Of a DNA stretch of 64,000 nucleotides, positions 15,537 through 43,305 are shown piece by piece. The notes under the pieces are model-generated. The model did no database searches and was not told the origin of the DNA. It saw nothing but the letters and a program-made list of their open reading frames with translations. Position 1 is the first letter of the stretch; each line of letters opens with the position of its first letter. Both the position numbers and the translations under genes were made by a program. The stretch is from an uncultured Alphaproteobacteria bacterium (GTDB taxonomy: Bacteria > Pseudomonadota > Alphaproteobacteria > HIMB59 > GCA-002718135): contig CACEPG010000004.1 of NCBI GenBank assembly GCA_902561355.1, positions 13,133 through 77,132 of the forward strand, read 5' to 3'.

Positions 15537-16475
15537 ATGACTCAAATAAAACCTTTGGAAGGTATGTTGACACCTCGCTTTGCTGATATTGCAACTTTTT
15601 TTCGATTACCCATTATTAAAGATTTAAGTAAATTAGATTATTGTATTTGTGGAGTTCCATGGGACGGAGGAACCACAAACAGACCTGGAGCCAGGCATGG
15701 TCCTAGAGAAATTAGAAATTCATCATCTTTGGTAAGATTATACCATCCTAGATCTTTAAAAAGTCCATATGATAAATTTAATGTAGCTGATATTGGAGAC
15801 TGTCCAGTAAATCCAGCTGATTTACAAGATTCATTATTAAAAATTGAGAATTTCTATAATAAAATTTTACAATCAAAAACTATTCCTATTTCAATAGGTG
15901 GTGATCATTTAGTTAGTTTACCTGTCTTAAGAGCTTTAGCAAAAAATAAACCTGTTGGTTTGTTTCAATTTGATTCTCACACAGATACTTATGATACATA
16001 TTTTGGAGGTTTTAAATATACTCATGGCACACCTTTTAGAAGAGCTATTGAAGAAAACTTAATTGATCCAAAAAAATACGTAATGTTAGGAATTAGAGGA
16101 TCATTATATCACCCTGACGATTTGAACTGGGCAAGAGAGCAAGGTGTTACGATAATTACTATAGATGATTTTCATGAAATGGGTTTTAATAAAGTAATAG
16201 ATACAATTTACAAAGTACTTGGAGATGTATCAACTTACTTAACGTTTGACATAGATGGAATAGATTGCACTTATGCGCCAGGCACAGGTACTCCTGAAGT
16301 AGGAGGATTCACTGTTCGAGAATCACAAACAATTATTAGAGCCTTAAATAAAATTAATTTTATAGGAGCTGATGTGGTAGAAGTATCTCCTCCATTTGAT
16401 ATCAACAATATGACGTCGCATATAGGGGCAACAATAGCATTTGAAATTTTATGCATGATGACAAGGACAAATTAA
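15537..16475 (+). CDS. Arginase-family ureohydrolase (agmatinase / guanidino-acid hydrolase)
   Basis: 312 aa with the motifs GVPWDGGTTNRPGARHGPREIR, GGDH, FDSHTD and TFDIDGID (binuclear Mn ligand motifs). Confidence 0.85.
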   Translation: MTQIKPLEGMLTPRFADIATFFRLPIIKDLSKLDYCICGVPWDGGTTNRPGARHGPREIRNSSSLVRLYHPRSLKSPYDKFNVADIGDCPVNPADLQDSLLKIENFYNKILQSKTIPISIGGDHLVSLPVLRALAKNKPVGLFQFDSHTDTYDTYFGGFKYTHGTPFRRAIEENLIDPKKYVMLGIRGSLYHPDDLNWAREQGVTIITIDDFHEMGFNKVIDTIYKVLGDVSTYLTFDIDGIDCTYAPGTGTPEVGGFTVRESQTIIRALNKINFIGADVVEVSPPFDINNMTSHIGATIAFEILCMMTRTN

Positions 16476-16476
16476 A

Positions 16477-16686
16477 ATGATTAATTCTTCTAAAAAACAT
16501 CTTGAAAACGCTAGAGAAAGTTATTTTGAACATATGTTTTTTGCTTTAAAAATTTCTATTAATTTGATTTTAGGAGGTTTTATGGCGCTTATACATTCTA
16601 TAGTTCCTGGAATTTTTACTAAAAATGCAAGTACTATAATTTTAAATTTGTCTGATCAAATTAAAGAAAGAAAGAAAGAAAGATAA
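16477..16686 (+). CDS. Small hypothetical membrane protein
   Basis: 69 aa with one central TM segment. Starts 1 nt after the ureohydrolase stop. The C-terminus is encoded by an (AAAG)5 repeat. Confidence 0.45.
   Translation: MINSSKKHLENARESYFEHMFFALKISINLILGGFMALIHSIVPGIFTKNASTIILNLSDQIKERKKER
16663..16682. repeat. Tetranucleotide microsatellite (AAAG)x5
   Basis: Read directly: aaag aaag aaag aaag aaag. It encodes the KERKKER tail of the 69-aa ORF. Confidence 0.95.
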
Positions 16687-19053
16687 TTAATTTTTTTTGA
16701 ATATTTGACTATAATTTTTTAACTTTATATTTAAGTTTTTTGGGAGTTTTAAATCTATTTTTTCTTTCTGAGGTTTTCCTTTTCCTTTCTTTATAAAAGA
16801 TAATTCAATTTTTTTTCCATTAATATTTATCTTAGGAATTAAGATTAAATTTTTCCCTTTTTTATAATTCACAGTTAATCCGTCATCAAAAATTATTGGT
16901 AAATTATTTTGGATAAAAACCTTACTTGTTTTGGAAGGGTATATTTCAACCTCTTTTATAGGTGCAAAATGTGGTTTACTTAATGAAAATTTTAATTTTG
17001 GAACTAATGTTCCTCCTCTTATTAGAATAGGTATTTTATATAATGGAGCTTCTAATTCCACAGAACCTCCACAGCTAATTAATTTTTTTGAAAAATAATC
17101 AAACCAACCCTCGTTACAAAAAGGTAAAAATATTTTTTTTTTAAATGTATTTTTATGCAAAATTGGAGCAATAATAATTCTTTCATTAATTGAAAAAACC
17201 TCCTCTTGATTAAAATGTTCTTTTTCAGGAAAATCAAAAAACATCGGTCGTACTATTGGTTCTCCAGAATTAAAATATCTCCATATAGCTGAATATAAAA
17301 TTGGTAAAATTTCATATCTTAACTTGATAATTTTACTTACTTCTAAAATGCTATCTTTATAGTTCCAAGGAAAATTAGTCTTATTTAGAAAGTCTGTAGA
17401 TGTTTGTTTACTTGTCTGTTTATTTAAACCAGGCTTCCATGAGTTCATTAGAAATCTAGGATGAAATAACATAAGTTGAAAAGATCTAATCAGTAATTCT
17501 TTCTCAGTTTTTTTTCCACAAAAACCCCCTATATCATGACCAAAAAAACCAATACCTGAAAGCGAAAGGCCTAGACTTATTGACATACTCCATTTCAAAG
17601 AATGCCATGAGGTTTTATTATCACCTGTCCAAGTCTCAACATGATTTTGAATACCAATACTTCCTGATCTTGTGACTCCATGATTTCGGATCATCGGGTA
17701 AAATGATTGAGTAGCTTCTGAACTACTTTTTGTCATCATGTAAGCTTGCAAGGAAATGAAATTTTTAGTTGCTACTTTTCTTCTATTGAAGTCTGAAAAA
17801 CCTATGAAATTTTCTAAGTCATATTCATTATTATCATTCCAAATAGCATCAAAACCCTGGGATAAAATATATTTTTTTATATTTTTTTTCCACCAAGTTT
17901 GTGAATCTTTTTTTAAAAAATCTATAAAACTTCCTTTACCGCCCCAAAATTGTATCAGAAGAGGATTATTAAATTTATCATTAATAAATAAATTTTCTTT
18001 TTTTGCTTTTTCATAAAAAGGGTGATCTTTCAATAACGCTGGTTTAAGATTGGCAACTAAATAAATACCCTTTTGTTTTAGTTTTTTTAAAAAATTTTTA
18101 GGATCAGGAAATTTTTTTTTATTCCATATAAAGACGTACCTTTTATTATTATGCAAACTATATCCTGAACTAAAATGCAAAGCACTTAAAGGAATATTAT
18201 ATTTTTTACATTTATTTAAAAAGTCAATATATAAACTTCTTGAATTTTTGTGATCAGCTATTTCCATAGATGAAAATTGAAAACCTAAACTCCATTTAGG
18301 AGGCAAATACCTATTTCCAATCAAATCATTTAATGTTGATACAATTGTTTTTTTAGAATTTTTTAAAATTATAATTAAATCTATTCCTTTTTTTTGTGTC
18401 TCATAATACCGATATGGTTCATGATAATTTGAATGTTCACTTCCTAAATCTATTATTGATGGAGATAGCTGATCATAGAGAATGCCGTAATCTTTTTCTC
18501 TGTTTTTAGTATTAACAACATAAATCCATGGAAAAGATTTGTATAAAGGGTCACTTTTTTCAGCGTTATAACCCAAGGTATCTTTTTGAGACATAACAAA
18601 TCTTCTAAAAGAACGATCAATAGAGCCTGATTTTTCACCTAATCCATAAATACTTTGATCATTATTTCTTAATTGATAATGGCTAGTTTTATTCTCTTCT
18701 TGATTCCAATACCAAGCTCCTGTGGGTCTATCTTGTTTGATTAAAATCCATTTTGATTTTATTTTCTTATAAAATTTTAAACATAATGGATTTTGATATA
18801 AATTTATTTTTAAATTAGTTGTTTCTATTGAATAGACTTTCCCTCTATTAATTATTGTGAAATTTTTACTTTTTATTTTTTTTCCAGAAAGCATAGTTAT
18901 GCTTTCTAAGTTTTTTTCTTTATTAGGTTTAAAAGATATTTTGATTATATTGTCTTCAAAAAAATTTATTTTCAGACTCCATTCATAATCTAGTTGAAAA
19001 ATTATTTTTTTTTCTACAACTTTGAAATCTTTAATAATATTAAAAGACAACAT
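16687..19053 (-). CDS. Glycoside hydrolase family 31 (alpha-glucosidase-type; substrate unknown)
   Basis: 788 aa. GH31 nucleophile motif AIWNDNNEYD (WxDMNE type), acid/base context GHDIGGF, and KRYVFIWNKKKFPDP (compare KRYFTWD..FP of GH31 alpha-glucosidases). Confidence 0.85.
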   Translation of the reverse strand: MLSFNIIKDFKVVEKKIIFQLDYEWSLKINFFEDNIIKISFKPNKEKNLESITMLSGKKIKSKNFTIINRGKVYSIETTNLKINLYQNPLCLKFYKKIKSKWILIKQDRPTGAWYWNQEENKTSHYQLRNNDQSIYGLGEKSGSIDRSFRRFVMSQKDTLGYNAEKSDPLYKSFPWIYVVNTKNREKDYGILYDQLSPSIIDLGSEHSNYHEPYRYYETQKKGIDLIIILKNSKKTIVSTLNDLIGNRYLPPKWSLGFQFSSMEIADHKNSRSLYIDFLNKCKKYNIPLSALHFSSGYSLHNNKRYVFIWNKKKFPDPKNFLKKLKQKGIYLVANLKPALLKDHPFYEKAKKENLFINDKFNNPLLIQFWGGKGSFIDFLKKDSQTWWKKNIKKYILSQGFDAIWNDNNEYDLENFIGFSDFNRRKVATKNFISLQAYMMTKSSSEATQSFYPMIRNHGVTRSGSIGIQNHVETWTGDNKTSWHSLKWSMSISLGLSLSGIGFFGHDIGGFCGKKTEKELLIRSFQLMLFHPRFLMNSWKPGLNKQTSKQTSTDFLNKTNFPWNYKDSILEVSKIIKLRYEILPILYSAIWRYFNSGEPIVRPMFFDFPEKEHFNQEEVFSINERIIIAPILHKNTFKKKIFLPFCNEGWFDYFSKKLISCGGSVELEAPLYKIPILIRGGTLVPKLKFSLSKPHFAPIKEVEIYPSKTSKVFIQNNLPIIFDDGLTVNYKKGKNLILIPKININGKKIELSFIKKGKGKPQKEKIDLKLPKNLNIKLKNYSQIFKKN

Positions 19054-19065
19054 GTCAGTTAATAA

Positions 19066-20082
19066 TTATATTGAAATACCGTCTTTATTAAACCAATGGG
19101 CATTTTCTTTTTCAAAACTTATATCAATTTCAGAATTTACTTTAATATCTGTTTGATGATTTAATTTAATTGATAAATTTTGATTAGATACTGTTTCTCC
19201 ATAGAGATAACTATCTGAACCAAGCTGTTCGACATTTTTTATTTTTAATTTTAATGAATGTTCATTTCCAATATAAAGATGTTCAGGACGAACTCCAAAA
19301 ACATTTGAATTACTAGGGGCAAAACTTTTAATATCATTTGGCAAACTTTCAAATTCTAAAAAATTCATTCTAGGTGAACCAATGAAGCCAGCAACAAATA
19401 TATTTGCAGGTTTATTATAAAGATTGAGTGGTGAACCAACTTGCTCAACAATACCTTCATTAATTACAACTATTTTATCTGCCATCGTCATAGCTTCTAC
19501 CTGATCATGAGTTACATAAATCATAGTATTGCCTAGTCTTTCATGTAGAGCCTTTAATTCAACACGTGTTGCAACCCTCAATTCTGCATCTAAATTTGAT
19601 AAAGGTTCATCAAATAAGTAAATTGAAGGTTCTCTAACAATAGCTCTGCCAATTGCCACTCTTTGTCTTTGACCGCCTGATAATTGACCTGGTTTTCTTT
19701 TTAAATAATCTTCAATTCTTAAAAGTTTAACTGCTTGCATAATTCTTTCATCAATTTCATCCTTTTTCATTTTTAAATTTTCTAATCCAAAAGCTAAATT
19801 TTGACGAACAGACATGTGGGGGTATAATGCATATGATTGAAAAACCATTGCCAGACCTCTTTTTGCTGCAGAAATATTATTTACAGTTTTTCCATCAATT
19901 ACAATTTTTCCTTCCGTAATAGCTTCCAGCCCAGCTATCATTCTTAACAAAGTTGATTTGCCACAACCAGATGGTCCTACAAGCACACAAAATTCACCAT
20001 CAGATATTTCTAAATCAATACCATGTATAACTTGAAGTTTATCATAAGTTTTTTTTACATCTATTAATTCTAAATTAGCCAT
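19066..20082 (-). CDS. Sugar ABC transporter ATP-binding protein (MalK/UgpC type)
   Basis: 338 aa. Walker [10 protein letters not shown], signature LSGGQRQR, Walker [10 protein letters not shown], and a C-terminal MalK-like regulatory domain. Confidence 0.9.
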
Positions 20083-20085
20083 AAT

Positions 20086-21525
20086 TTATTTCATTCCTGT
20101 AGTTGCAATTCCTGTAGTGATGTATCTTTGTAAAAACACAAATACTAAAGTTGTGGGTATCAAACTAACAACTGTCATAGCAAGTCTATAATGTTCTTGT
20201 GCAACATATTCACCTTGAAAGTCAAGTAAGCAAAGTTGAATTGTGTAAGCAGTTTTGGTAGTGGAAACAGCAATCATCGGTAAAATCAAGTCATTCCATC
20301 TCCAAATTATTGATAAAATTGCTAATACTGCAATTGCTGGAAGAGCAAGGGGAAAAACAATTCGCCAAAAAATACTCCACTCGCTAGCTGCATCCATCCT
20401 TGCAGCTTCAAGTAACTCATCAGGTATAGTAAGCATATATTGTCTTAACATGAAAACTCCTGTTGGAGTTGCTGCACCCGGTATAATGACACCCCATAAT
20501 GTTCCTGACAAACCAGTTACGGAAACCATTTTAAATATTCCAACAATAAGAACTGAAGCAGGTACCATTAAAGTTGCTAAAATAATAATAAAGAAAATTA
20601 TTTGTCCGTTAAATCGGTATTTAGAGAGAGCAAAAGCTGCCATAGAATTAATTAAGACGGTAATTATTGTAGCAACAATTGTAACAAAAACTGAATTATT
20701 TAGGCATTTTATTGCATCAAAATTCATACCTCTAACATTATTAGTCAAAGGATCAGAATAGTTTATCCAAGATGGTCTTAATTTTTTATTAACAATAATT
20801 TCGTTTGAAGGAATTTTTACAATGCCTCCTTGAGGGTTACTTATTAACCTTGCATTTATTGTTTCTTTGTTAGTATTTATACGATTAACAGAATATTCTT
20901 CTATTTCTTGTGTATCTGGATTTATTGCAGAAACCAATATTTGAGATGTAAATCCATTAGGTTTGTATGGTTTTAATACTAAAAATTCAGATAAAAGTCT
21001 TATCTCTTCTTCATTTAAGCCTTTTAAATATGTATCTGGATCATAATCTTTTTTTGCATTAGGAAACATGCTTGGATACTTAATTAACCATTCAGGTAAA
21101 TTTTTATTTTTAATTAATTCTTTTGCATGTTTTGAAACAAGGCCAAGATGAGTTCTTAAAGCATAATATTCATTACCATCAAATTTTAAAATAAATGCCT
21201 CTGGATCATTTTTTTGTTTTTTGTCTTCATCACGCAATTCGTTCCAATATATTACCCAGTCTGGTAAATCTTTTATTATAAAAATTTCTTTACCTTCGGG
21301 TCCAAAAACTGTTGCTCTAACAACCCTATCATAATCTAGAGGCAGAAGATTGGTGTCTAATTTTTGAAGAAGAAATTGAGACTTAATTGAGTTTAAAAGC
21401 AACCAAGCAACAGGTAAAAAAATAATTAAAAATCCTAAAAAAAGATACCCATAAGCAATCCAATCAACAAAAGACAATTTTTTATGTCCTTGTGTTCTTG
21501 AAAAAAACTTTATTACAGCGCTCAT
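20086..21525 (-). CDS. Sugar ABC transporter permease (MalG-like) with a very large first periplasmic loop
   Basis: 479 aa. EAA-type loop EAARMDAASEWSIFWRIVFP. About 230 aa lie between TM1 and TM2. Confidence 0.85.
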   Translation of the reverse strand: MSAVIKFFSRTQGHKKLSFVDWIAYGYLFLGFLIIFLPVAWLLLNSIKSQFLLQKLDTNLLPLDYDRVVRATVFGPEGKEIFIIKDLPDWVIYWNELRDEDKKQKNDPEAFILKFDGNEYYALRTHLGLVSKHAKELIKNKNLPEWLIKYPSMFPNAKKDYDPDTYLKGLNEEEIRLLSEFLVLKPYKPNGFTSQILVSAINPDTQEIEEYSVNRINTNKETINARLISNPQGGIVKIPSNEIIVNKKLRPSWINYSDPLTNNVRGMNFDAIKCLNNSVFVTIVATIITVLINSMAAFALSKYRFNGQIIFFIIILATLMVPASVLIVGIFKMVSVTGLSGTLWGVIIPGAATPTGVFMLRQYMLTIPDELLEAARMDAASEWSIFWRIVFPLALPAIAVLAILSIIWRWNDLILPMIAVSTTKTAYTIQLCLLDFQGEYVAQEHYRLAMTVVSLIPTTLVFVFLQRYITTGIATTGMK

Positions 21526-22577
21526 AATTTTACCTGTCTTCGCGTTAAATAAAATTGAAGCAAAGATAAGAGTATTAACAATAATGCAACTAATAAAGAT
21601 GCCATTGCCGCTATACCTAAACCAAACGTTGTTTTTTGCCCTCTTAATCCTGCTGTTTCAAAAATATAGGAAACTAAGGATATCCAACCTACTTGCAATG
21701 CAAATAATTCTTCAAAAGCCTGGAAAGCTTTTATCAAAGATAAAACTGTAACAACTAAAAGAATAGGCATTAGCAAAGGTAAAGTTATTCTCCAAAAAAC
21801 TCTTTGATCTGAAGTGCCGTCCATTTCGGCAGCTTCATATAAATCTTTTGGAATAGATTGAAGACCCGCAAGCAAAATAAGCATGTAAAATCCTAAATGA
21901 GCCCAAGTATATATAAAAACTGACCAAAACATTGTCCATGAAGGATCAGTCAACCATTGAATTGGTTCATCTATCCAGTTCCATTCCATTAAAGTTTGTG
22001 ACAATAAACCCTGTCTTTTTAAAATTAATGTCCATAAAAATGCTACAACTACTGGACTTAACATGACAGGGTAGAAATATACAGCTCGCCAAAAAGCCCT
22101 TCCTATTACTTCTCTATTTAAAACTATAGCTGTAATAAGAGCGACTACAATCATGATTGGCACCTGAAATAAAACAAAAACAAATGTATCAGCAATTGAA
22201 GATTTAAATTTATCATCTTCCATATTCTCGACACCAGTATCGATCTGTGTTTCTAATACTATTCTAGCTAAATTGTCTGAACCTGAATAATCTCTAGAAG
22301 AAAAATTAATGCTTTCTCCATCGGTCACAGAAAAACCAAAATTCATAAAAAGTGGTAAAAAAGTAAATAATCCAAAAATTAAAATATTTGGAAATAAAAA
22401 CAAATATGGGAGACTCTTTGTTCCACTAAATCGTTGAGTTGTTTCAATAGGCCACCCTATTGTTGACATTAATCTAGGTATAAAACCTATTACGTCTCTA
22501 GATAGTAAAAAACCAATAAAAAGGTAAACAAATAAGACAAAATACCAATAATTAATATTAAAAATATTTTCAATCAT
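21522..22577 (-). CDS. Sugar ABC transporter permease (MalF-like)
   Basis: 351 aa. EAA loop EAAEMDGTSDQRVFWRITLP. 4-nt overlap with the next permease. Confidence 0.88.
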   Translation of the reverse strand: MIENIFNINYWYFVLFVYLFIGFLLSRDVIGFIPRLMSTIGWPIETTQRFSGTKSLPYLFLFPNILIFGLFTFLPLFMNFGFSVTDGESINFSSRDYSGSDNLARIVLETQIDTGVENMEDDKFKSSIADTFVFVLFQVPIMIVVALITAIVLNREVIGRAFWRAVYFYPVMLSPVVVAFLWTLILKRQGLLSQTLMEWNWIDEPIQWLTDPSWTMFWSVFIYTWAHLGFYMLILLAGLQSIPKDLYEAAEMDGTSDQRVFWRITLPLLMPILLVVTVLSLIKAFQAFEELFALQVGWISLVSYIFETAGLRGQKTTFGLGIAAMASLLVALLLILLSLLQFYLTRRQVKL

Positions 22578-22611
22578 CTATTGGAAAACTGCATGCAAGT
22601 TTTAAAAAAAT

Positions 22612-22634
22612 AAGGCCGATAAACTATCGGCCTT
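22612..22634 (-). terminator. Intrinsic terminator/attenuator hairpin between the binding-protein gene and the permease genes
   Basis: aaggccgata-aac-tatcggcctt. On the minus-strand RNA the GC-containing stem is followed by auuuuuuu. Confidence 0.7.
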
Positions 22635-22648
22635 AAATAAAAAAATAA

Positions 22649-23899
22649 CTATTCAGCAATTTTTGCTGCTACATCAGCATCAATAGCTTTTAAAGCATCT
22701 TCTAGACTCATTTCTCCTGTTATAGCTTTAGTAATGTAGTCAGGTACAATTCCGTATATCGCGAAATTTTTATTATACCCTTGGAACCAATAAGCTTGAG
22801 GAGTTGTGTCAGCTGCTTTACCAGCATTAGCTGCAAATATAGCTAAACCTTCTGCTACAGTTGGACTTACACCAGAATAATCTATACCAGATTTTTGCAA
22901 ACCTTGGTGAGCAGTTATATTGCTAGTGCTTGCTGCAAATGTTTCGGCATTTTCAGTTTGAGATAAAAAGTTAATCAATGAAGCTGCTGCTTCAGGATTT
23001 TTAGTTGATTTAAATGCAACAACACCTGAGCCTCCTGGCATTGCTCCACAACCTCCAGGTCCACATGGAATTGGTACTACTTTCCATTCAAAATCAGTAA
23101 TATTTTTATCATAATTACCTAACATCCAAGATCCAGACATATGCATTGCTACAGTTCCATCTAAAAATAATGGTGCAGCATTTTTATAAGCTGTGCCTGA
23201 TCCAGCTGGCCAACCTTCTGCTGGCATTAATCCTTCTTTATGCCATCCAACAAAAACTTCAGAAAACTTTCTAAAACCTTCATCAACTAAAATTGGAGTT
23301 CCATTTTCATGGAATTTTGCTCCATAAGAAAACGCAGGTCCAGCCCAACGATGAGCTGTTCTATCTAATGCAAGACCTGCTGTTAAACCTAGTTCTGATT
23401 TAACTTGTCTTAAAGCATCAGCCCAATCATCCCAGCTAGAACCTTCCTCGGGCATGTCTACTCCCGCATCTTCAAACATTGTTACATTAACATAAGGTCC
23501 TGTAACTGTAAGTTGCGTTTGCCATCCATAAATCCCATCATCACCTGAGGGTTTTCTATACCAAGGTAAAGTAGCTCCATAATTAGTTTCCCAATAAGAA
23601 GAATCTACATAAGGCTTTAGGTCCAAATAAAATTTATTTAAACCACCTAAGTTAGTTACCCTAGCTAAGTCTGGCGCTGCATCAGATTCTAATTGATTTT
23701 CAAGTTGCTCTCTAATAACTTCATAACCAACAGTTTCAATATTTAATGTGTGCCCTGAAGACGCTTCCCAAGGTTTTGCTATCTCAGCAATTGTATCACA
23801 TTCATTAATATCCTGATAACAAACAAATTTCAATTCAGCAGAAATTGCTGAAAAAGAAGATGTTAGAATAACAGAAATAATTAAAAAAATTTTCTTCAT
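22649..23899 (-). CDS. Sugar ABC transporter periplasmic substrate-binding protein (family 1)
   Basis: Signal peptide MKKIFLIISVILTSSFSAISA. I moved the start from the ORF-track 23935 to the ATG at 23899, which is preceded by AGGAGG. Size and composition are typical of SBP_bac_1. Confidence 0.85.
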   Translation of the reverse strand: MKKIFLIISVILTSSFSAISAELKFVCYQDINECDTIAEIAKPWEASSGHTLNIETVGYEVIREQLENQLESDAAPDLARVTNLGGLNKFYLDLKPYVDSSYWETNYGATLPWYRKPSGDDGIYGWQTQLTVTGPYVNVTMFEDAGVDMPEEGSSWDDWADALRQVKSELGLTAGLALDRTAHRWAGPAFSYGAKFHENGTPILVDEGFRKFSEVFVGWHKEGLMPAEGWPAGSGTAYKNAAPLFLDGTVAMHMSGSWMLGNYDKNITDFEWKVVPIPCGPGGCGAMPGGSGVVAFKSTKNPEAAASLINFLSQTENAETFAASTSNITAHQGLQKSGIDYSGVSPTVAEGLAIFAANAGKAADTTPQAYWFQGYNKNFAIYGIVPDYITKAITGEMSLEDALKAIDADVAAKIAE

Positions 23900-23903
23900 T
23901 TTT

Positions 23904-23909
23904 CCTCCT
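23904..23909 (-). promoter_or_regulatory. Shine-Dalgarno sequence (AGGAGG) for the sugar-binding protein gene
   Basis: The complement of cctcct lies 4 nt upstream of the ATG at 23899. Confidence 0.6.
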
Positions 23910-24108
23910 AAATCACAAATATACTGAAGATACATAACATAGCAGGTAAGTAATGCAATTTTTAATGTTATAAAAAAAGCCAGAAAACTATTAAATAATT
24001 CTGATTTATTATTATTTATTCCAATATATTGATAAATTAATTATTTATATTTTAATTATAAATAATATTGATTAAATAAAATTCTTCAAACAAATCAAAA
24101 GGGTTCTA

Positions 24109-25485
24109 ATGATTGGATATTTAGGAGTAGCAAGAGAAACTTTTGATATTAATCTTGCTAAAAAAAAATTTGATGAAGCAAAAAATTTAATTCATTCCTT
24201 AAACCCTAATAGCAAAGGTATTGATGAATTAATCACAAATAATGAGTCTGCTATAAAAGCAATAAATTATTTTAAGAAAAATAAATTCAAAAAAATTTTA
24301 TTTTTTCAAACTACATTTACTGATGCAAAATTTATACTTCACTTTGCAATTACTATTAAAAAACCTATATGTATTTTAGCTTTTCCAGAACAAAGAACTG
24401 GTCGTCGGTTAAGATTAAATTCTATTTGTGGCTTAAATTTAGGTATGCATTCTCTAATTAAGAATAAAATTGTTCCTAATTTTATTATTATTGATCAAAA
24501 CAAAAAAAATTATACTAAATATTTAAGTACTTTTATAAAAAAAAATAAAATAAAAAATAAAGTTGAAAACTGGAAGAAAATATTTGTTTCAAAAAAAAAT
24601 GAATTAACAAATAATATTAAAAAACAAAAAATTGGAATCATTGGAATAAAACCTGAGGGTTTTGATACGTGCGATTATAAAGATAGAGAAATAAAAGAAA
24701 AACTTAATTTCGATCTTAAAAAAATCAGTCTTAATAATCTGTTTGAAGAATCAAATAAAATTAAAAAAAATAAAATAATTAAAACTAAATCAATGATAGC
24801 TAAAACTTTAAGGGATACAAAAAAATTAAATCAAAAAGAATTTGAAAAAAGTATTTCAATATATCATGGTTTAGAAAGTCTAAAAAATAAACACAATGTT
24901 CAAGCATTTGCAGTAAGATGTTGGCCTGAAATGTTTACTAAATTTGGTTGTGCATCATGTGGGCCTATGGCAATGATGAATGAAAAAAATATTAGTTGTG
25001 CTTGTGAAGTTGATGTTTTAGGGAGTATAAGTTGTAATATTTTAAATCAATTAAATGGGAAACCTTCGTTATTAGTTGATATAGTTGACATAGATAGTAA
25101 AGATAATAGTCTTGTATTTTGGCATTGTGGATTGGCGCCAATCAGCATGTCTAAAAAGAAAGAAGCAAGTGCAGATGTACATTCAAATAGAAGAAAACCA
25201 CTTCTTCATAATTTTAGTTTAAAACCTGGAATAATTACTATTTTTAGAGTTTCTAAATCTTCTAATAAGCTAAAGTTTTTTGTAACGAAAGGAGAAATAA
25301 AAAATAGAAAAAATTCTTTTTCTGGGACTTCTGGAGTGGTTAGTTTGGGAAACAATACTATAAATAAAATCAATATGATGTTTAAGGGCGGCCTAGAACA
25401 TCATGTTGCCTTTACGTATGGTAATCTTTATGATGAAATTATTAGTTTAGGAAAAAAAATGAAAATTCCAACCTACACAGTATGA
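24109..25485 (+). CDS. L-fucose/L-arabinose isomerase-family sugar isomerase (substrate unknown)
   Basis: 458 aa. The C-terminal half AFAVRCWPEMF...CACEVDVLGS...VFWHCG...LEHHVAFTYG resembles metal-dependent aldose-ketose isomerases of the FucI/AraA superfamily. Confidence 0.6.
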   Translation: MIGYLGVARETFDINLAKKKFDEAKNLIHSLNPNSKGIDELITNNESAIKAINYFKKNKFKKILFFQTTFTDAKFILHFAITIKKPICILAFPEQRTGRRLRLNSICGLNLGMHSLIKNKIVPNFIIIDQNKKNYTKYLSTFIKKNKIKNKVENWKKIFVSKKNELTNNIKKQKIGIIGIKPEGFDTCDYKDREIKEKLNFDLKKISLNNLFEESNKIKKNKIIKTKSMIAKTLRDTKKLNQKEFEKSISIYHGLESLKNKHNVQAFAVRCWPEMFTKFGCASCGPMAMMNEKNISCACEVDVLGSISCNILNQLNGKPSLLVDIVDIDSKDNSLVFWHCGLAPISMSKKKEASADVHSNRRKPLLHNFSLKPGIITIFRVSKSSNKLKFFVTKGEIKNRKNSFSGTSGVVSLGNNTINKINMMFKGGLEHHVAFTYGNLYDEIISLGKKMKIPTYTV

Positions 25486-26570
25486 ATAAAAAAACAAAAT
25501 ATGCAATAATTGGATCAGGAGCAATGGGACGAGAACACATTCGTAACATAAATATAATTGAAGATGCAGAGGTTGTAGCTTTGTCTGATCCTCACAATAA
25601 TTCATTAAAACAAAGTTTAGAATTATTAAATAAAAATATTCCGACCTTCACAAATCACATCGAATTAATGAATTCAAATCTTGCAGATGCTTATATTGTA
25701 TCAAGTCCAAATTTTACCCATATAAATATTTTACAAGATATTATTGTTTCAAAAAAACACCTCTTAATTGAAAAACCTTTATGTACAACTACTGATGATT
25801 GTAAAAAATTTAAGGAACTTACTAAAAATTATCCTGCAGTTATTTGGACAGCTATGGAATACAGATATATGCCCCCAGTAAAAAAAATGATTAAAGCAAT
25901 ACATAATAATAAAATAGGTGATTTAAAAATGTTATCAATTAGAGAACATCGTTTTCCTTTCTTAAAAAAAATAAATGATTGGAATAGATTTTCTATTAAC
26001 TCAGGTGGAACATTAGTAGAAAAATGCTGTCATTTTTTTGATTTAATGAGATTGATTATTAGAAGTGAGCCTGAAAAAATTTATGCTAGCGGTAAACAAG
26101 ATGTAAACCATTTAAATGAAGATTATAATGGCAAAAAACCAGATATAATTGATAATGCTTATGTAATTGTAGATTTTAAAAATGGAGTTCGAAGTCTTTT
26201 AGATTTATGCATGTTTGCAGAAAATTCTAAATATCAAGAAGAGCTCTGTGCAGTTGGTAATTTAGGTAAAATTGAAACCGAAGTTCCTGCAAGTAGATCA
26301 GGTCTAGCTTCTTCAGAACTACGAATTGGATTAAGAGAAAACAATAAAATGGAAACCGAAGTTGTCGAAGTAGATAAAAAAATTTTAGAAGCAGGTCATC
26401 ATCACGGTTCAACTTATTATGAACATTTAGCTTTTTTAAATTCAATTAAAAAAAATACAAAAGCTGAAGTTTCTTTAAATGATGGTCTTATGGCCGTTGC
26501 TATTGGTGAGGCTGCAGAACTGTCAATAAAAGAAAATAGAGTTGTATTTATGAAAGAGTTTAAATTATAA
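25482..26570 (+). CDS. Gfo/Idh/MocA-family NAD(P)-dependent oxidoreductase
   Basis: 362 aa. N-terminal Rossmann motif YAIIGSGAMGREH and an EKP motif (LLIEKPL). 4-nt overlap with the isomerase gene. Confidence 0.88.
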   Translation: MNKKTKYAIIGSGAMGREHIRNINIIEDAEVVALSDPHNNSLKQSLELLNKNIPTFTNHIELMNSNLADAYIVSSPNFTHINILQDIIVSKKHLLIEKPLCTTTDDCKKFKELTKNYPAVIWTAMEYRYMPPVKKMIKAIHNNKIGDLKMLSIREHRFPFLKKINDWNRFSINSGGTLVEKCCHFFDLMRLIIRSEPEKIYASGKQDVNHLNEDYNGKKPDIIDNAYVIVDFKNGVRSLLDLCMFAENSKYQEELCAVGNLGKIETEVPASRSGLASSELRIGLRENNKMETEVVEVDKKILEAGHHHGSTYYEHLAFLNSIKKNTKAEVSLNDGLMAVAIGEAAELSIKENRVVFMKEFKL

Positions 26571-27488
26571 TTTAAAAAACTCTTTTACTGAATTTGCAAT
26601 AAATTCGCTTACTCTCGTATTAGACTCTTCAGTCACACCAGCAATATGAGGTGTAAGTATACAATTTGTATTACTTTTTATACTATTTAAAAAATTTTTT
26701 TGTACTGGCTCGTTATCATATACATCAAGAGCAAATCCCGTTATTAGTTTTTCATCATAAGCTCTTAATAAATCTTCTTCATTAATTATAGAACCTCTTG
26801 AAGAATTAATAATGATGGGTTGTTTTAGCATTTTCTTAAAAACCTCGTAATTCAATAAATTTTTAGTATTTACATTAAGAGGTAAATGGATTGAAATAAT
26901 ATCAGCTAGTTGAAATATCTCCTTTATATCAAGTAACTTAACATCAAATTTATTACCAACACTGGAATCAATAAATGGATCATATGCAATTATTTTAGCA
27001 TTAAATACCTTGGCCAAGATAGATACTTTTTTTGCAATTAAACCAAAACCCAATAAACCAATTGTTTTACCTTGCAATTCTTTTGAAGCAATTGATGTAC
27101 GGGGCCAATTACCTATTGAAGTTTCCTGATGCATTAAAGGGAGATTTTTTAATAAGGATAGGGATGTATTTATTACATATTCTGCGACAGAATCAGCATT
27201 CATACCTGTAGCTGGCTGCACAAAAATGTTATTGCTTTTACAATAATCAGTATCAATATTATCTAAACCGACTCCTAAACGTCCAATAAATTTTAAATTA
27301 GTTGCTTTTTCTAGCACTTCTTTTTTAACTTGAGTTTTATTTCTCACAATTAAAGCATCAAATTTACTAATTATTTTTTTTAACTCATTAGAGTTTGCTG
27401 ATAAATCATGATCAACTGTAACATCAAAATTTATTTTTAGAACTTCTACAAATCTAACTTCCATAAATTCTGTGATCAATATTTTCAT
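26565..27488 (-). CDS. D-isomer-specific 2-hydroxyacid dehydrogenase (PGDH/GyaR-like)
   Basis: 307 aa. NAD motif GLLGFGLIAKKV, plus SSRGSIINEEDL, LDVYDNEP and TPHIAGVT. Confidence 0.88.
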   Translation of the reverse strand: MKILITEFMEVRFVEVLKINFDVTVDHDLSANSNELKKIISKFDALIVRNKTQVKKEVLEKATNLKFIGRLGVGLDNIDTDYCKSNNIFVQPATGMNADSVAEYVINTSLSLLKNLPLMHQETSIGNWPRTSIASKELQGKTIGLLGFGLIAKKVSILAKVFNAKIIAYDPFIDSSVGNKFDVKLLDIKEIFQLADIISIHLPLNVNTKNLLNYEVFKKMLKQPIIINSSRGSIINEEDLLRAYDEKLITGFALDVYDNEPVQKNFLNSIKSNTNCILTPHIAGVTEESNTRVSEFIANSVKEFFKL

Positions 27489-27492
27489 AAAA

Positions 27493-28398
27493 TTATATTT
27501 TCCTTAACTGGATTTGTTTTGTAAAATTTTTAACAGATGAAAACGAAGGTAGGGAATAAATACCTCCATATTTGGTGCATTTTAAAGAAGCAGTGGCAGT
27601 AGCTAATTTCATTGTCTCAATAATAGAATACTTTTTATGTATAAAGGCTGCAAATGCTCCATGGAAAACATCTCCTGCACAATTAGTTTCAACAACTTTT
27701 ATTGCTGGAGGTTTACAATTAAAAATAATACCATTTTCAATCCAATAAACCCCTTTTTTACCCGCAGTGATGGCATAGAATTTATTTTTTAATGAATTCA
27801 TTTTCTTTAATGAACTAATTATTGATTTGGTTTTTGTATATTCGAACGCACCTGTTTCAGAAAAGATAGGATATGAAGCAAGATCTACAATTTGTTTTAT
27901 TTTTGAGGTTAATTTATAATTGTCCAAATCAACAACATGTATTAAATTTTTTTTTTTACAATTTTTAGCAACATAAAGAGAGGCATCAACCCATCGTAAG
28001 TCAGTAATAAAAGTTGTATTTTTACTAAAAGAGATTTTAGGTAATTTTCTATTTTTCAATAATTTTTTTTCATTAAAAGCAGCTAGAAGTCTTTCACCTT
28101 GCTTATCTTCATAAACATAACTTTGTGATGTTTGAGCTCCTTTAATTGTTATAGAATCTTTGTATTTAATTTTAAATTTATTCAACTCTCCTGTTAAAAA
28201 TTTAGACACATCATCATCTCCAAACCTACCAATAAATGAAGTGTTTATTCCAAGTTGTTTTATAGTAAAACAAGCTACAGCAGCTGATCCCCCAAGTCTC
28301 TTTTCAATTCCTTTAGCTAATATTTTTATGGGAGTTTTAGGAAATGAATCAATTTTAATGATATGATCTAGAAAAATTGAACCAACTGAATAAATCAT
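27493..28398 (-). CDS. PfkB-family carbohydrate kinase
   Basis: 301 aa. N-terminal GGSAAVA-type motif (RLGGSAAVAC) and the C-terminal PfkB signature VETNCAGDVFHGAFA. Confidence 0.85.
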   Translation of the reverse strand: MIYSVGSIFLDHIIKIDSFPKTPIKILAKGIEKRLGGSAAVACFTIKQLGINTSFIGRFGDDDVSKFLTGELNKFKIKYKDSITIKGAQTSQSYVYEDKQGERLLAAFNEKKLLKNRKLPKISFSKNTTFITDLRWVDASLYVAKNCKKKNLIHVVDLDNYKLTSKIKQIVDLASYPIFSETGAFEYTKTKSIISSLKKMNSLKNKFYAITAGKKGVYWIENGIIFNCKPPAIKVVETNCAGDVFHGAFAAFIHKKYSIIETMKLATATASLKCTKYGGIYSLPSFSSVKNFTKQIQLRKI

Positions 28399-28418
28399 AG
28401 TTTCTTATAAAGAAAAAA

Positions 28419-28988
28419 TTAAAGGTACGAAACCAAACCTATTTTTTTCCTAAATCGATCTCTTATTGTTACAGGATTAAGCGGTATTGGTTTAACTGGT
28501 ACATTTCCTGATTTAATCTTAGATATTATAACATAAGAATTATTTTTATCAGAAAGTGCTTTCTGTAAGTTTTCACTAGTTTCTTCTCCTGAGCATTGAA
28601 TAACATTTTGGCATCCTGAGCCTTTTGCAACATCCTTCAATGAAGTACGCTCACCAGTAAAAGTTTTTTGATCACCAGTAGAACCATAAGATGCGTTATC
28701 AATTATTAATAAGGTATAATTAGAAGGCGCTCTATTACCTATCGTAGCAAGTGTATTCATATTCATTAATACAGATCCATCCCCATCTATACTAATAACA
28801 TTTTTATTTATTGATAATGCTAGCCCTAATCCAATGGAAGATGATAATCCCATACTTCCAAGCATGTAAAAATAATTTGGTTGATCATTGATTTGATACA
28901 ATTCTTGAGATGGAAGACCAATATTACAAATTACTAATTCTTCTTGAATAGTTTTTTGTAATAATTTTAAAAGTTCAAATCGATTCAT
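28419..28988 (-). CDS. comE: Sulfopyruvate decarboxylase beta subunit (ThDP-binding; phosphonopyruvate decarboxylase is the alternative)
   Basis: 189 aa. ThDP motif GDGSVLMNMNTLATIG...N. Split alpha/beta arrangement with a 4-nt overlap. Confidence 0.7.
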   Translation of the reverse strand: MNRFELLKLLQKTIQEELVICNIGLPSQELYQINDQPNYFYMLGSMGLSSSIGLGLALSINKNVISIDGDGSVLMNMNTLATIGNRAPSNYTLLIIDNASYGSTGDQKTFTGERTSLKDVAKGSGCQNVIQCSGEETSENLQKALSDKNNSYVIISKIKSGNVPVKPIPLNPVTIRDRFRKKIGLVSYL

Positions 28989-29485
28989 TGATCATCTTTC
29001 ATTAAATCAAAATTACAAAGAATGGCTACTGGACCCTCTATTACTTTTGCATGTTTTGATTGTGTTTCTATTTTATGAATATCGCTTTCTTTATTACAAT
29101 GAAGTATAGGTATGCGAAGTGTATTAAGAATTTCTTCAGTTACACTAGCCATTGCACCTTGTGCTCCTACAGGTTCACCTGGCGTACCTCTATAACTAAT
29201 TAAAAATACTATTGGCATTTGATACAATTGCAAAAGAGAGACGATGGAATTTACAGAATTACCAATACCAGTATTTTGCATCATTATACAAGGAAGTTTA
29301 TTTCCTAAATAAGCTCCTGCACAAATTCCCATACCTTCTTCTTCTCTAGGTATTGCTGAATAAAATACTTCTTTGTCTGCCTCTAAGATTGTAATCATAT
29401 TAGCTAAAAGTTTACACGGGACACTTAAGAAAAAATCTACTCCACCATCTTTAAGTTTAGATATTATTTTTTGGCTAATTTTCAT
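28985..29485 (-). CDS. comD: Sulfopyruvate decarboxylase alpha subunit (ThDP pyrimidine-binding domain)
   Basis: 166 aa. Reads SVPCKLL...PREEEGMGICAGAYLGNK...MQNTGIGN, with the size expected of ComD. Confidence 0.7.
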   Translation of the reverse strand: MKISQKIISKLKDGGVDFFLSVPCKLLANMITILEADKEVFYSAIPREEEGMGICAGAYLGNKLPCIMMQNTGIGNSVNSIVSLLQLYQMPIVFLISYRGTPGEPVGAQGAMASVTEEILNTLRIPILHCNKESDIHKIETQSKHAKVIEGPVAILCNFDLMKDDQ

Positions 29486-29546: not shown

Positions 29547-30452
29547 TTATATTTTTCTTTCTCTATGTTTAATAGTGATTTTTTGTTTAACATAAATAAT
29601 TATACCACCTAAAACAATAAACAATGCGCCAGGAAATAATTGATCAATAGGCCACTCTTTAAAGAATATCCAACCTAAAATTAAAGCAAAAAATATTTCA
29701 ATATAGTCAAAAGGCATAATTTTACTAAGTTCTGCTTTTCTTGAGCCATAAATTAATAATAAAACACCTGAACCACCTGCCAAACCCATTATAAACAATA
29801 TAAGCAAATCATATAAACTTTTAAAATTTTCCCACATATTAAATGTAATAACTAAGAGTATTGCACAAATTAAAGTTCCAATATTGGCGTAAAGATTAAT
29901 TAATGGCACAGGGGTATCATTTGAAAAATTTAAAGCTGTTACCCTAGCAAGAGAATAACCAAAAGCAGCCATTACTGGAAGTAACATATAATAATTAAAA
30001 CTTTCAGACCAAGGTTGCATAATAAAAATTATGCCTACGAAACCTGTTAATACAGCTAATGATTTATACCATCCAAATTTTTCACCTAGTAGTGGTATTG
30101 CTAATAATGTAATCATGATTGGTCCTGTGTACTCCATTGTTGCAACCAAAGCGTAGGGTAAATAAAGATAAGAGGTATATAAACATAGTTGCGCAAAAGA
30201 CATAATTAGTCCTCTTGCTAAGCCAAAGCGCCATCTTTTTATTACTAATTTTTTTCCACTAGCATGCCAGTCTTGTGAAAAATACAATGCAATAAAACAT
30301 GGTATCATTCCAAACAGATTTCTAAAAACTGATAATTGTGCAGCTGGATAATCTTCTCTAAGGTATTTTATGGCAATGCCCATACAGTCTAATAAAAATA
30401 ATCCAGATAAGGAAAGTACAACTGCTATAAATAAATTACTTTTCACCCACAA
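29547..30452 (-). CDS. EamA/DMT-superfamily transporter
   Basis: 301 aa, about 10 TM helices. Non-ATG start (TTG at 30452 or GTG at 30446) overlapping the 3' end of the upstream ATPase gene. Confidence 0.75.
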   Translation of the reverse strand: MWVKSNLFIAVVLSLSGLFLLDCMGIAIKYLREDYPAAQLSVFRNLFGMIPCFIALYFSQDWHASGKKLVIKRWRFGLARGLIMSFAQLCLYTSYLYLPYALVATMEYTGPIMITLLAIPLLGEKFGWYKSLAVLTGFVGIIFIMQPWSESFNYYMLLPVMAAFGYSLARVTALNFSNDTPVPLINLYANIGTLICAILLVITFNMWENFKSLYDLLILFIMGLAGGSGVLLLIYGSRKAELSKIMPFDYIEIFFALILGWIFFKEWPIDQLFPGALFIVLGGIIIYVKQKITIKHRERKI

Positions 30453-43171: not shown

Positions 43172-43305
43172 AATTATTTTCCTAAAACTGCAAAATTTAT
43201 TAAGCCATATAGGATAGATTGTCTTAATCCAAGCAGAATTCTACTTATATAGTTTAATTTCATAGGAAAAAATAAGAGGCTAGTATAGAAGGTAAAATAT
43301 CTGCT

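Follow-up and report, generated by a model that had tools for sequence, protein, structure and literature searches.

The window analysed here, a 64 kb stretch of contig CACEPG010000004.1, contains a gene island that is likely to serve the catabolism of sulfoquinovose (SQ) or SQ-glycerol in SAR11 bacteria (Pelagibacteraceae). Read from the sequence, the island would join a hybrid upper pathway, of the Embden-Meyerhof-Parnas type of sulfoglycolysis (sulfo-EMP), to a lower pathway that leads from sulfolactate through sulfopyruvate to sulfoacetaldehyde. In plants and algae this sulfur sugar forms the head group of membrane lipids. In the sea, sulfoquinovose compounds are estimated at about 1.5 Pg of carbon per year (PMC12780224). 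The island very probably encodes SQ uptake and complete breakdown. A first-pass annotation of the window had also proposed a sulfosugar locus; we come to the same view on other evidence than it gave.

In the proposed pathway an ATP-binding cassette (ABC) importer would take in SQ-glycerol or SQ, as its gene context suggests. SqgA would free SQ in an NAD+-dependent reaction, an isomerase of the SftI/SqvD type would convert SQ to sulfofructose, and a YihV-like PfkB kinase would convert sulfofructose to sulfofructose-1-phosphate (SFP). SFP would presumably be split into dihydroxyacetone phosphate (DHAP) and (S)-sulfolactaldehyde (SLA) by a housekeeping aldolase encoded elsewhere in the genome. 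A GabD/SlaB-like aldehyde dehydrogenase encoded outside the island would presumably turn SLA into (S)-sulfolactate (SL). From there, a dehydrogenase resembling SlcC and 3-phosphoglycerate dehydrogenase (PGDH) would form sulfopyruvate, ComDE would form sulfoacetaldehyde, and Xsc would release acetyl-phosphate and sulfite, which Pta (to acetyl-CoA) and AprBA would process. The steps given to SqgA, the isomerase, the kinase, the dehydrogenase, ComDE, Xsc, Pta and AprBA are supported by homology, residue and context checks.

We checked open reading frames (ORFs) by coordinates and strand and assigned families by Pfam and NCBIfam scans. The first-pass annotation had placed eleven ORFs in the locus and Xsc at 56027-57796; the ORF and family scans confirm all of them in position and strand. 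The features are, in order:

16687-19053, minus strand: GH31 glycosidase (788 aa), the gene that closes the transporter operon (three Pfam GH31 domains)
19066-20082, minus strand: UgpC/MalK-type ABC ATPase (NCBIfam UgpC, Pfam ABC_tran and TOBE_2)
20086-21525, minus strand: MalG/UgpE-like ABC permease; long extension at the N terminus (Pfam BPD_transp_1)
21522-22577, minus strand: ABC permease, UgpA/MalF-like (Pfam BPD_transp_1)
22649-23899, minus strand: periplasmic solute-binding protein, SBP (Pfam SBP_bac_1/8)
23900-24108, no strand: divergent intergenic region, flanked by the transporter operon and the isomerase-SqgA pair; the site of the SFP aldolase in relatives
24109-25485, plus strand: predicted SftI/SqvD-type (FucI-like) isomerase, Fucose_iso_C-type (NCBIfam NF048012)
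25482-26570, plus strand: predicted GH188 SqgA with Gfo/Idh/MocA fold (matches to PDB 8QC3 and 8QC2), overlapping the isomerase ORF
26565-27488, minus strand: predicted SlcC/PGDH-like D-2-hydroxyacid dehydrogenase, HADH (Pfam 2-Hacid_dh and 2-Hacid_dh_C)
27493-28398, minus strand: predicted YihV-like PfkB kinase (Pfam PfkB, PDB 7AG6)
28419-28988, minus strand: predicted ComE, sulfopyruvate decarboxylase beta subunit (TIGR03846)
28985-29485, minus strand: predicted ComD, sulfopyruvate decarboxylase alpha subunit (TIGR03845), overlapping comE by 4 nt
29547-30452, minus strand: EamA/DMT-family membrane transporter (weak TIGR00950 match; Pfam EamA in orthologues)
43306-44217, plus strand: Pta-type phosphate acetyltransferase, outside the locus (Pfam PTA_PTB, NCBIfam NF006045)
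47964-50293, plus strand: AprB and AprA, adenylyl-sulfate reductase (TIGR02060, TIGR02061)
56027-57796, minus strand: Xsc, 26 kb from the locus (NF005713, TIGR03457)

The first-pass annotation took the gene at 25482-26570 for an oxidoreductase. Homology and residues make it instead a predicted GH188 NAD+-dependent sulfoquinovosidase (SQase), and very probably the true SQase of the locus. Over its full length (residues 5-355) its product matches PDB 8QC3 (E 8e-112), and it matches PDB 8QC2 (E 6e-111), again over the full length. These structures are ArSqgA and FlSqgA-NAD-SQ, founding members of GH188, a family of NAD+-dependent sulfoquinovosidases (PMC10755693). The protein has the Pfam domains GFO_IDH_MocA, _C and _C3, a fold of two domains, of which the N-terminal one is an NAD-binding Rossmann domain. 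In ArSqgA the catalytic and sugar-binding residues are K107, Y136, E189, H193 and H321, and the sulfonate is bound by R166, the L170 backbone and K172 (PMC10755693). SqgA of the window keeps Lys98 (EKP), Tyr127 (MEYRY), Glu180 and His184 (VEKCCH) and one His of the run 306-308. The sulfonate triad is kept as well: Arg157, Leu161 and Lys163 in EHRFPFLKK. At the position of ArSqgA L170 the protein retains the canonical Leu, in contrast to the Tyr variant of PMC11465081.

Directly upstream of SqgA lies the isomerase. Its only NCBIfam match is NF048012, 'sulfoquinovose isomerase SftI' (E 3e-85, model positions 4-441 of 443). The Pfam Fucose_iso_C score is 24.5 at a cut-off of 29.3, and a PDB search gave no match. 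In nearly all SAR11, Thioglobus and high-GC loci (described below) this gene is found directly upstream of the SQase gene, be it SqgA or GH31, and the ratio of nonsynonymous to synonymous substitution (dN/dS) is 0.11-0.15. The enzyme is therefore best assigned, on sequence and context, to the known SftI/SqvD type (FucI-like, PF02952), predicted to convert SQ to sulfofructose. A FucI-like SQ isomerase is not new; the novelty that the first-pass annotation saw in a FucI/AraA-like isomerase disappears with this assignment.

The kinase was earlier called YihV-like, and this stands. Its best PDB match is 7AG6, the E. coli sulfofructose kinase YihV (E 1e-39), against 1e-12 for ribokinase; blastp gives 31% identity to YihV over 293 aa (E 1e-47), and the Pfam PfkB score is 121 bits. 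YihV binds the sulfonate with the triad K27-N109-R138 and has the catalytic D244 in GXGD (PMC8006165). The window kinase keeps K25 (K27 in YihV), R135 (R138) and D243 (D244), and the AGD with D243 is kept in 74 of 74 homologues. On these matches and residues it is predicted to be a YihV-like sulfofructose kinase.

The first-pass annotation led the C3 sulfonate out through a 2-hydroxyacid dehydrogenase, ComDE and Xsc. Family models and the residues shared with the SERA clade leave this as the best reading of the exit. The predicted dehydrogenase has 307 aa and is without regulatory domains; its best PDB matches are the type-IIIH PGDHs 1WWK (5e-50) and 2EKL. Its catalytic Arg, Glu and His align with the triad of D-2-hydroxyacid dehydrogenases. 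Two anion-binding Arg of the SERA clade also align, namely R70 and R49, the latter from the 'Arg-Ser' motif that reads Arg-Asn in this enzyme. (S)-Sulfolactate has the D configuration and a structure similar to that of 3-phosphoglycerate. SlcC is placed in or beside the SERA clade (PMC6303947), and sulfoglycolysis gives S-SLA and then S-SL, the substrate of SlcC (PMC12421959; PMC11131964). Homologues at 78-79% identity carry the JGI label '(S)-sulfolactate dehydrogenase'. For a relationship to SlcC of Chromohalobacter salexigens these JGI names are the indirect support. The evidence points to a putative SlcC-like, type-III PGDH-like (S)-sulfolactate dehydrogenase.

ComE and ComD pass the cut-offs of their own models, with 224.4 bits at a cut-off of 221.5 (TIGR03846) and 156.3 bits at 147.95 (TIGR03845). 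On the model of phosphonopyruvate decarboxylase (Ppd) they reach 127.8 and 95.9 bits, respectively, at a cut-off of 312.5. Together they are predicted to form a split thiamine diphosphate-dependent sulfopyruvate decarboxylase. Xsc scores 1025.9 on NF005713 (cut-off 620) and 951.8 on TIGR03457 (cut-off 676.4). The Pta-type enzyme is just over its subfamily cut-off (NF006045, 286.8 against 282), aligned to the PTA part of the model; AprB scores 189.2 on TIGR02060 (cut-off 135.65) and AprA 1009.5 on TIGR02061 (cut-off 641.75). With Xsc, a Pta-type enzyme and AprBA present, sulfoacetaldehyde should be convertible to acetyl-CoA and sulfite should be oxidisable. The exit route would thus be complete within the window. 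The EamA transporter at the end of the island may be an exporter.

On the uptake side, the ATPase passes the cut-off of the NCBIfam UgpC subfamily (475.7 against 432). It is 75-77% identical to its orthologues in Thioglobus SQ loci; the permeases 20086-21525 and 21522-22577 are 74-79% and 78-84% identical to theirs. The SBP is 78-86% identical to the SBP encoded divergently beside the SQ genes in Thioglobus-type loci, and its nonsynonymous divergence (dN) is 0 across six population contigs. From this context the SBP may be the receptor for SQ or SQ-glycerol. Its ORF extends to 23935; we favour the start at 23899 because cluster members, one of them named 'Pelagibacteraceae bacterium', have 416 aa. 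About 260 residues extend the MalG/UgpE-like permease at its N terminus, ahead of BPD_transp_1 at residues 301-471 of 479. This extension is kept in the Thioglobus orthologues (477-479 aa).

How widespread is this arrangement? The isomerase has hundreds of marine homologues. A scan with an isomerase profile, taking one genome per species, gave 80 loci, and neighbourhood look-ups added more. Gene content per locus was tabulated by blastp, and the denominators vary between genes. The loci fall into three groups:

SAR11-type (47 loci including the window, one labelled Pelagibacteraceae; G+C 28-31%): SqgA, PfkB, HADH, ComD and ComE in 42/42 each; adjacent aldolase in 6/41; mutarotase in 41/42; EamA in 39/42; GH31 in 10/33
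Thioglobus/Pseudothioglobus-type (G+C 34-40%; including the complete genome of Pseudothioglobus sp. nBUS_23): SqgA in 13/13; PfkB and HADH in 12/13; ComD and ComE in 0/13; adjacent aldolase in 14/16; mutarotase in 0/13; FGGY (glycerol-kinase-like) gene in 9/13; DeoR-family and IclR regulators
High-GC Proteobacteria (Steroidobacteraceae, Woeseiaceae, Parvularculaceae and others; G+C 45-70%): PfkB in 12/14; HADH in 10/14; SqgA in 1/14; ComD and ComE in 0/14; adjacent aldolase in 12/16; mutarotase in 0/14; SQase usually GH31 (7/10)

The gene order of the window recurs in the 46 other SAR11-type loci. Six independent metagenome contigs, taken from Tara Oceans and other projects, have precisely its architecture, in the order agmatinase, DUF6356 ORF, GH31, ABC genes and SBP, isomerase, SqgA, HADH, PfkB, ComE, ComD and EamA. 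The arrangement thus did not come about by chance. Hence the missing genes are not an assembly artefact.

A module of aldolase, isomerase, SQase, kinase and HADH recurs in Thioglobus/Pseudothioglobus and in high-GC Proteobacteria. In these relatives a YihT-like class I aldolase is encoded directly upstream of the isomerase, and the YihT residues Schiff-base Lys193, Ser226 and sulfonate-binding Arg253 are kept in 34 of 34 aldolases. Therefore the core is a hybrid sulfo-EMP module. The proposal that the sugar genes be checked for co-occurrence with comDE has a clear outcome: comDE is adjacent in all 42 SAR11-type loci, and the sugar genes are never beside comDE in the Thioglobus-type or high-GC loci. 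Among the groups compared, SAR11 alone has joined the hybrid sulfo-EMP core to ComDE. The EamA transporter occurs in no Thioglobus-type locus.

The closest structure to the relatives' aldolase is PDB 8TNF, and DUF2090 is otherwise tied to inositol catabolism. The aldolase resembles tagatose-bisphosphate aldolases, which prompted us to consider sulfofucose/sulfotagatose as substrate. We rejected this, as the published sulfofucose route is of the Entner-Doudoroff type and unrelated, and SqgA keeps the SQ-binding residues. The FGGY gene beside 9 of 13 Thioglobus-type loci fits SQ-glycerol as substrate.

The remark that the locus lacks a regulator holds for SAR11, where no DeoR/GlpR-family regulator, IclR regulator or FGGY gene was found in the loci. 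It does not hold for the Thioglobus relatives. In Pseudothioglobus sp. nBUS_23 (locus L025; 8114-8920 and 16013-16801) a DeoR/GlpR-family regulator, of the same family as E. coli CsqR, stands directly upstream of the aldolase, and an IclR regulator is present too.

It speaks against a complete pathway that two steps lack a gene. Tblastn with the relatives' aldolase found no SFP aldolase in the 64 kb (best E 0.3) and no aldolase remnant in the divergent intergenic region, and the locus has no transaldolase, transketolase or regulator, as the first-pass annotation had noticed for all of these. An aldehyde dehydrogenase was likewise absent from the 64 kb in a motif scan and in family scans, and one is nearby in only 2 of the first 84 loci; the window cluster has no SLA-processing enzyme, neither a YihU reductase nor an SlaB/GabD dehydrogenase. 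Family scans beyond the locus gave no substitute aldolase in the remaining part of the window either. The SLA dehydrogenase of Paracoccus wurundjeri is likewise an open problem (PMC12421959).

Several further results weigh against our interpretation. The window is the sole one of 42 SAR11-type loci without a mutarotase and shows no trace of one. When metagenomes were scanned with an aldolase profile, the isomerase came directly after the aldolase in 21 of 21 low-GC contigs that have downstream sequence. Since in low-GC DNA the aldolase was never seen away from the isomerase, a dedicated copy elsewhere in the aldolase-less genomes is unlikely, and these genomes are probably without a dedicated aldolase entirely. 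In E. coli the enzymes of sulfo-EMP act strictly on sulfonated intermediates, and YihT is inactive on fructose bisphosphate (PMC8006165). Hence cross-activity of a glycolytic aldolase on SFP is not to be assumed. Single assignments have their own soft spots. The isomerase reaches 286.6 bits on NF048012, under the equivalog cut-off of 700. In the kinase YihV N109 is replaced by Ala107; this position is Ala in all SAR11-type and Val in Thioglobus-type homologues, and Asn only in the high-GC homologues. ComE clears its cut-off by only 3 bits. A PDB search with the SBP gave no close solved or characterised relative, and SmoF was absent from the matches. In the window population the kinase has the highest dN/dS, 0.42 from few substitutions, followed by the dehydrogenase with 0.27.

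These observations invite the view that the window variant is truncated or decaying: it would stall at SFP, or it would combine hydrolysis of SQ glycosides with a separate sulfolactate-ComDE-Xsc route for imported C3 sulfonates. The two steps without a gene, the aldolase that in low-GC DNA never lies outside the island, the lost mutarotase and the dN/dS of kinase and dehydrogenase all speak for it, and SAR11 is known to use 2,3-dihydroxypropane-1-sulfonate (DHPS) and C3 sulfonates (PMC11131964). We nevertheless consider this view unlikely. Every ORF of the window population is intact: the twelve island genes from GH31 to EamA have dN/dS of 0.00-0.42 in up to six independent contigs. Among SAR11 lineages with and without aldolase, dN/dS is 0.138 and 0.130 for PfkB, 0.151 and 0.152 for HADH, and 0.138 and 0.148 for the isomerase. 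Because constraint is the same in both, the pathway without aldolase is probably still used. Some Thioglobus-type loci also lack the aldolase, which suggests that it is dispensable. Furthermore, a sugar phosphate that stays uncleaved would presumably do harm, and a kinase that no further step follows should then disappear.

The first-pass annotation offered another reading, in which GH31 is the SQase and the missing aldolase marks a new, non-aldolase route from sulfosugar to C3 sulfonate. There are grounds for it. The GH31 gene is transcribed together with those of the importer, its dN/dS of 0.17 in the window population indicates purifying selection, and 35 of 41 SAR11-type loci have no adjacent aldolase. 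A third convergent clade of GH31 SQases is conceivable, as SqgH already showed convergence within GH31 (PMC12780224). Near the position of YihQ Q288, GH31 has a neutral Ser where most related alpha-glucosidases have Asp.

The protein itself argues otherwise. The sulfonate-recognition motif of GH31 SQases is Q/E-R-W-Y, formed in YihQ by Q288, R301, W304 and Y508 (PMC12780224). In an alignment to E. coli YihQ, GH31 keeps the catalytic D407 and D478 (YihQ D405 and D472), but of the motif only the Arg (R305): W304 is replaced by F308 and Y508 by F511, and the Q288 region corresponds to Ser290/His293, where the alignment is ambiguous. On the YihQ-derived NCBIfam model PRK10426 the protein scores 119.5 bits at a cut-off of 553, whereas the genuine YihQ of Aurantimonas scores 941.7. 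Its best PDB relatives are the alpha-glucosidases MGAM and MalA, with YihQ at only E 4e-19, which bears out a caveat already raised in the first-pass annotation, that GH31 looks like an ordinary alpha-glucosidase.

Gene content points the same way. A complete SqgA with every SQ-binding residue is already in the locus. All Thioglobus-type loci and 23 of 33 SAR11-type loci have no GH31; these retain the rest of the pathway. By a pocket-region signature the relatives of GH31 form two groups, and the SAR11 enzyme falls with the Rhizobiales group. In Aurantimonas an ABC importer and a GH31 35% identical to that of the window lie directly upstream of a mutarotase, a lactonase, a short-chain dehydrogenase/reductase (SDR) and the genuine YihQ, with TauE nearby. 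GH31 thus accompanies a genuine SQase in two unrelated lineages and does not replace one. In Aquibium the GH31 relative adjoins UxuA and a gene of the mannitol-dehydrogenase family. As to the aldolase, close relatives carry a YihT-like enzyme upstream of the isomerase, and its absence in SAR11 is a loss, not the design of a new route. We regard the GH31 reading as improbable; judged by its residues, GH31 is an accessory alpha-glycosidase and not a YihQ-type SQase.

In the high-GC loci L070 and L074-L083 the GH31 beside the isomerase also lacks YihQ W304 and Y508, both being Phe. These enzymes (Steroidobacteraceae, Parvularculaceae and related) have a YicI-like 'DGRAW..TRFAFEWD' region. With this region and the two Phe they are candidates for the SqgH-like clade, described recently, instead of GH31_13.

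A protein of about 400 aa without a Pfam match closes the transporter operon in 28 SAR11-type loci and is not found in the window. It is a uronate isomerase of the BH0493 type (PDB 2Q08, E 8e-85), with examples in L002 (1436-2638), L042 (1060-2274) and L029 (948-2144). We considered it as the missing enzyme and rejected it: it is a uronate isomerase and occurs with and without the aldolase. In L002 it adjoins a mannitol-dehydrogenase-family gene and an SDR gene, and in type-B loci two further Gfo/Idh/MocA genes and a second 2-hydroxyacid dehydrogenase-like gene. Its presence in the sister loci suggests a second, uronate-like substrate for the island.

It is very doubtful that a housekeeping transaldolase cleaves sulfofructose (sulfo-TAL), with the PfkB kinase acting on fructose-6-phosphate to regenerate the acceptor. 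The locus does lack an aldolase, and the only family match of the isomerase is SftI, a sulfo-TAL isomerase. To our knowledge, many SAR11 genomes are without a canonical phosphofructokinase. The PfkB family includes the minor 6-phosphofructokinase (PMC8006165). However, the best relative of the kinase is YihV, and it keeps the equivalents of K27 and R138, which replace the phosphate-recognition triad RRS of PfkB/TPK. The kinase also co-occurs with a YihT-like SFP aldolase in relatives, and SqvD/SftI isomerases are documented in hybrid sulfo-EMP clusters (PMC9594981).

Finally, a locus for ordinary neutral alpha-glucosides (maltose, sucrose or glucosylglycerol) that lies beside sulfonate genes by chance would account for the alpha-glucosidase-like GH31, the MalK/UgpC-like ATPase and an SBP without a sulfosugar-specific relative, but is hardly credible: SqgA, the SftI-like isomerase, the YihV-like kinase and ComDE best match sulfonate-specific enzymes or curated models, JGI gives homologues of the dehydrogenase the name (S)-sulfolactate dehydrogenase, the linkage does not vary among 42 SAR11-type loci, and the transporter is orthologous to the one beside the Thioglobus SQ genes, where GH31 is absent.

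The layout of the window adds some detail to the catabolic island that we prefer. G+C is about 29% throughout, and members of identical protein clusters as well as close homologues carry the label Pelagibacteraceae. The divergent intergenic region is free of ORFs and measures 209 nt from the SBP start at 23899, or 174 nt from the long SBP ORF. A scan of this region for promoter-like and terminator sites gave nothing above chance; for intrinsic terminators a single region, 23700-24300, was scanned, and it contained no such site. An Rfam scan of the window gave zero matches. SqgA and the dehydrogenase are convergent, and their stop codons overlap by 6 nt (26565-26570). Therefore no space remains for a terminator between the two.

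We also compared the window with the loci L001, L035, L088 and L002. The island is a mosaic: its transporter arm is nearest to SAR11 loci of 'type A', whose SBP is about 90% identical, and its dehydrogenase-kinase-ComDE arm to aldolase-bearing 'type C' loci (78-87%). Contig L088 has a type-A-like transporter together with the aldolase. The pattern suggests recombination at the divergent intergenic region.

Other genes of the window lie around the island. Between an agmatinase gene and GH31, at about 16477-16686, there is a small ORF of 69 aa with Pfam DUF6356; it is below the length of the window ORF lists and was called in three population contigs of the same architecture (L167, L169 and L171). 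The window has two arginase/agmatinase-family genes, one of which adjoins genes for a DUF1989 protein and for a short, 350-aa MetE-like (Meth_synt_2) protein (coordinates 15537-16475, 39728-40705, 38868-39728 and 37814-38866). Two adjacent Opp/Dpp-type ABC ATPases (30443-31435 and 31439-32419) share a near-identical Cys-rich tail of about 40 residues, reading ...CVFRTRCPNPTHDCKEGNIEMGLI.VEP.HWVDQCCVNCG, which is unusual for paralogous subunits that otherwise differ. Organosulfur genes are dense beyond the island (40716-45119, 47964-50293 and 53318-54580). Here an omega-aminotransferase (AptA model, 585 against 500 bits) adjoins an alanine dehydrogenase as a Tpa/Ald-like pair, a second EamA transporter directly follows the Pta-type gene, and a DddP-like M24 protein scores 372 bits, under its cut-off of 600.

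Present accounts assign marine SQ degradation to other bacteria. Alteromonadaceae and Roseobacteraceae are named as principal consumers, and SAR11 and SUP05 go unmentioned (PMC12780224). Reviews of 2026 and a 2025 survey in Nature Communications attribute it to Roseobacteraceae, Alteromonadaceae and Oceanospirillaceae. To be counted in the 2025 survey, a prokaryotic SqgA had to exceed 54% identity to the Roseobacter enzyme. Pelagibacter is treated as a user of dimethylsulfoniopropionate and short-chain sulfonates (PMC13436972), and according to a preprint of 2024 comDE belongs to SAR116 and Planktomarina. Full-text searches, which did not reach into subscription journals, gave no description of an SQ locus of SAR11, Pelagibacter or Thioglobus. 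What appears to be new, as far as sequence can tell, is the hybrid sulfo-EMP module joined to SlcC-like-ComDE-Xsc mineralisation in SAR11, with a sister version in SUP05.

If this is true, SAR11 and Thioglobus, two of the most abundant marine clades, join the primary SQ degraders, and whole sulfonate mineralisation takes place inside one streamlined cell. Reviews currently omit SAR11, the most abundant ocean bacteria, from the SQ degraders. The recurrent loss of the aldolase makes moonlighting on sulfonated sugar phosphates a testable question. A wider picture can be offered only tentatively. SAR11 and, separately, SUP05/Thioglobus could be primary open-ocean degraders of SQ and SQ-glycerol, with most SAR11 lacking a dedicated SFP aldolase or SLA dehydrogenase. 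Housekeeping enzymes might then moonlight on the sulfonated intermediates, or an unrecognised enzyme might carry out both steps. GH31 and the BH0493-type uronate isomerase might give the island a second glycolipid head group, also anionic, as substrate, for example alpha-glucuronosyl-glycerol.

Among known systems, the predicted upper pathway resembles E. coli sulfo-EMP (yihQRSTUV), in which an SQ glycoside is converted to SQ, sulfofructose, SF-1-phosphate and finally DHAP and sulfolactaldehyde. The window has a YihV homologue, and relatives have a YihT-like aldolase (K193, R253) and a YihR-family mutarotase. As in the hybrid sulfo-EMP1/2 clusters, YihS would be replaced by an SqvD/SftI isomerase (PMC9594981). 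Unlike in E. coli, the predicted SQase is GH188 SqgA instead of GH31 YihQ and the importer is ABC instead of YihO. The window also lacks the aldolase, the mutarotase and a CsqR-type regulator. It has neither the SLA reductase YihU nor DHPS export; the C3 sulfonate would be mineralised in the same cell.

Of the gene sets in print, the GH188 'Tyr-variant' clusters found in Actinobacteria (IMCC26103, Clavibacter; Backlund and Higgins 2024, PMC11465081) come nearest. They share GH188, an isomerase of the fucose-isomerase type, an SF kinase, an ABC transporter and a 'D-3-phosphoglycerate dehydrogenase', some with and some without an SFP aldolase, and were flagged from bioinformatics only as a possible new sulfoglycolytic pathway. 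The actinobacterial clusters end in SuyAB (sulfolactate sulfo-lyase) and have an SLA dehydrogenase, a regulator and the GH188 Tyr at L170 (PMC11465081). The SAR11 island, in contrast, has no SLA dehydrogenase and no regulator, keeps the canonical Leu and would end in ComDE feeding Xsc.

The predicted lower pathway is the same as in sulfolactate degradation, from sulfolactate to sulfopyruvate, sulfoacetaldehyde and finally acetyl-phosphate and sulfite. The sulfolactate route via sulfopyruvate, ComDE and Xsc is described in Roseovarius nubinhibens, and Roseovarius uses the membrane-bound SlcD. SlcC of Chromohalobacter salexigens is a SERA-clade D-2-hydroxyacid dehydrogenase that acts on (S)-sulfolactate, as we propose for HADH. 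The known ComDE/Xsc routes serve imported C3 sulfonates; here the route appears physically fused to a sulfosugar upper pathway.

The known marine SQ degraders are Roseobacteraceae, with SqgA and an SQ monooxygenase (sulfo-SMO), and Alteromonadaceae, with SqgH and an SQ dioxygenase (sulfo-SDO; Ma et al. 2025, PMC12780224). The SAR11 island would share with them the phytoplankton pool of SQ and SQ-glycerol and a binding-protein importer with an intracellular SQase, which is GH188 as in the roseobacters. These marine degraders desulfonate the intact sugar by oxygenases, whereas the SAR11 island would split the sugar and desulfonate at the C2 stage.

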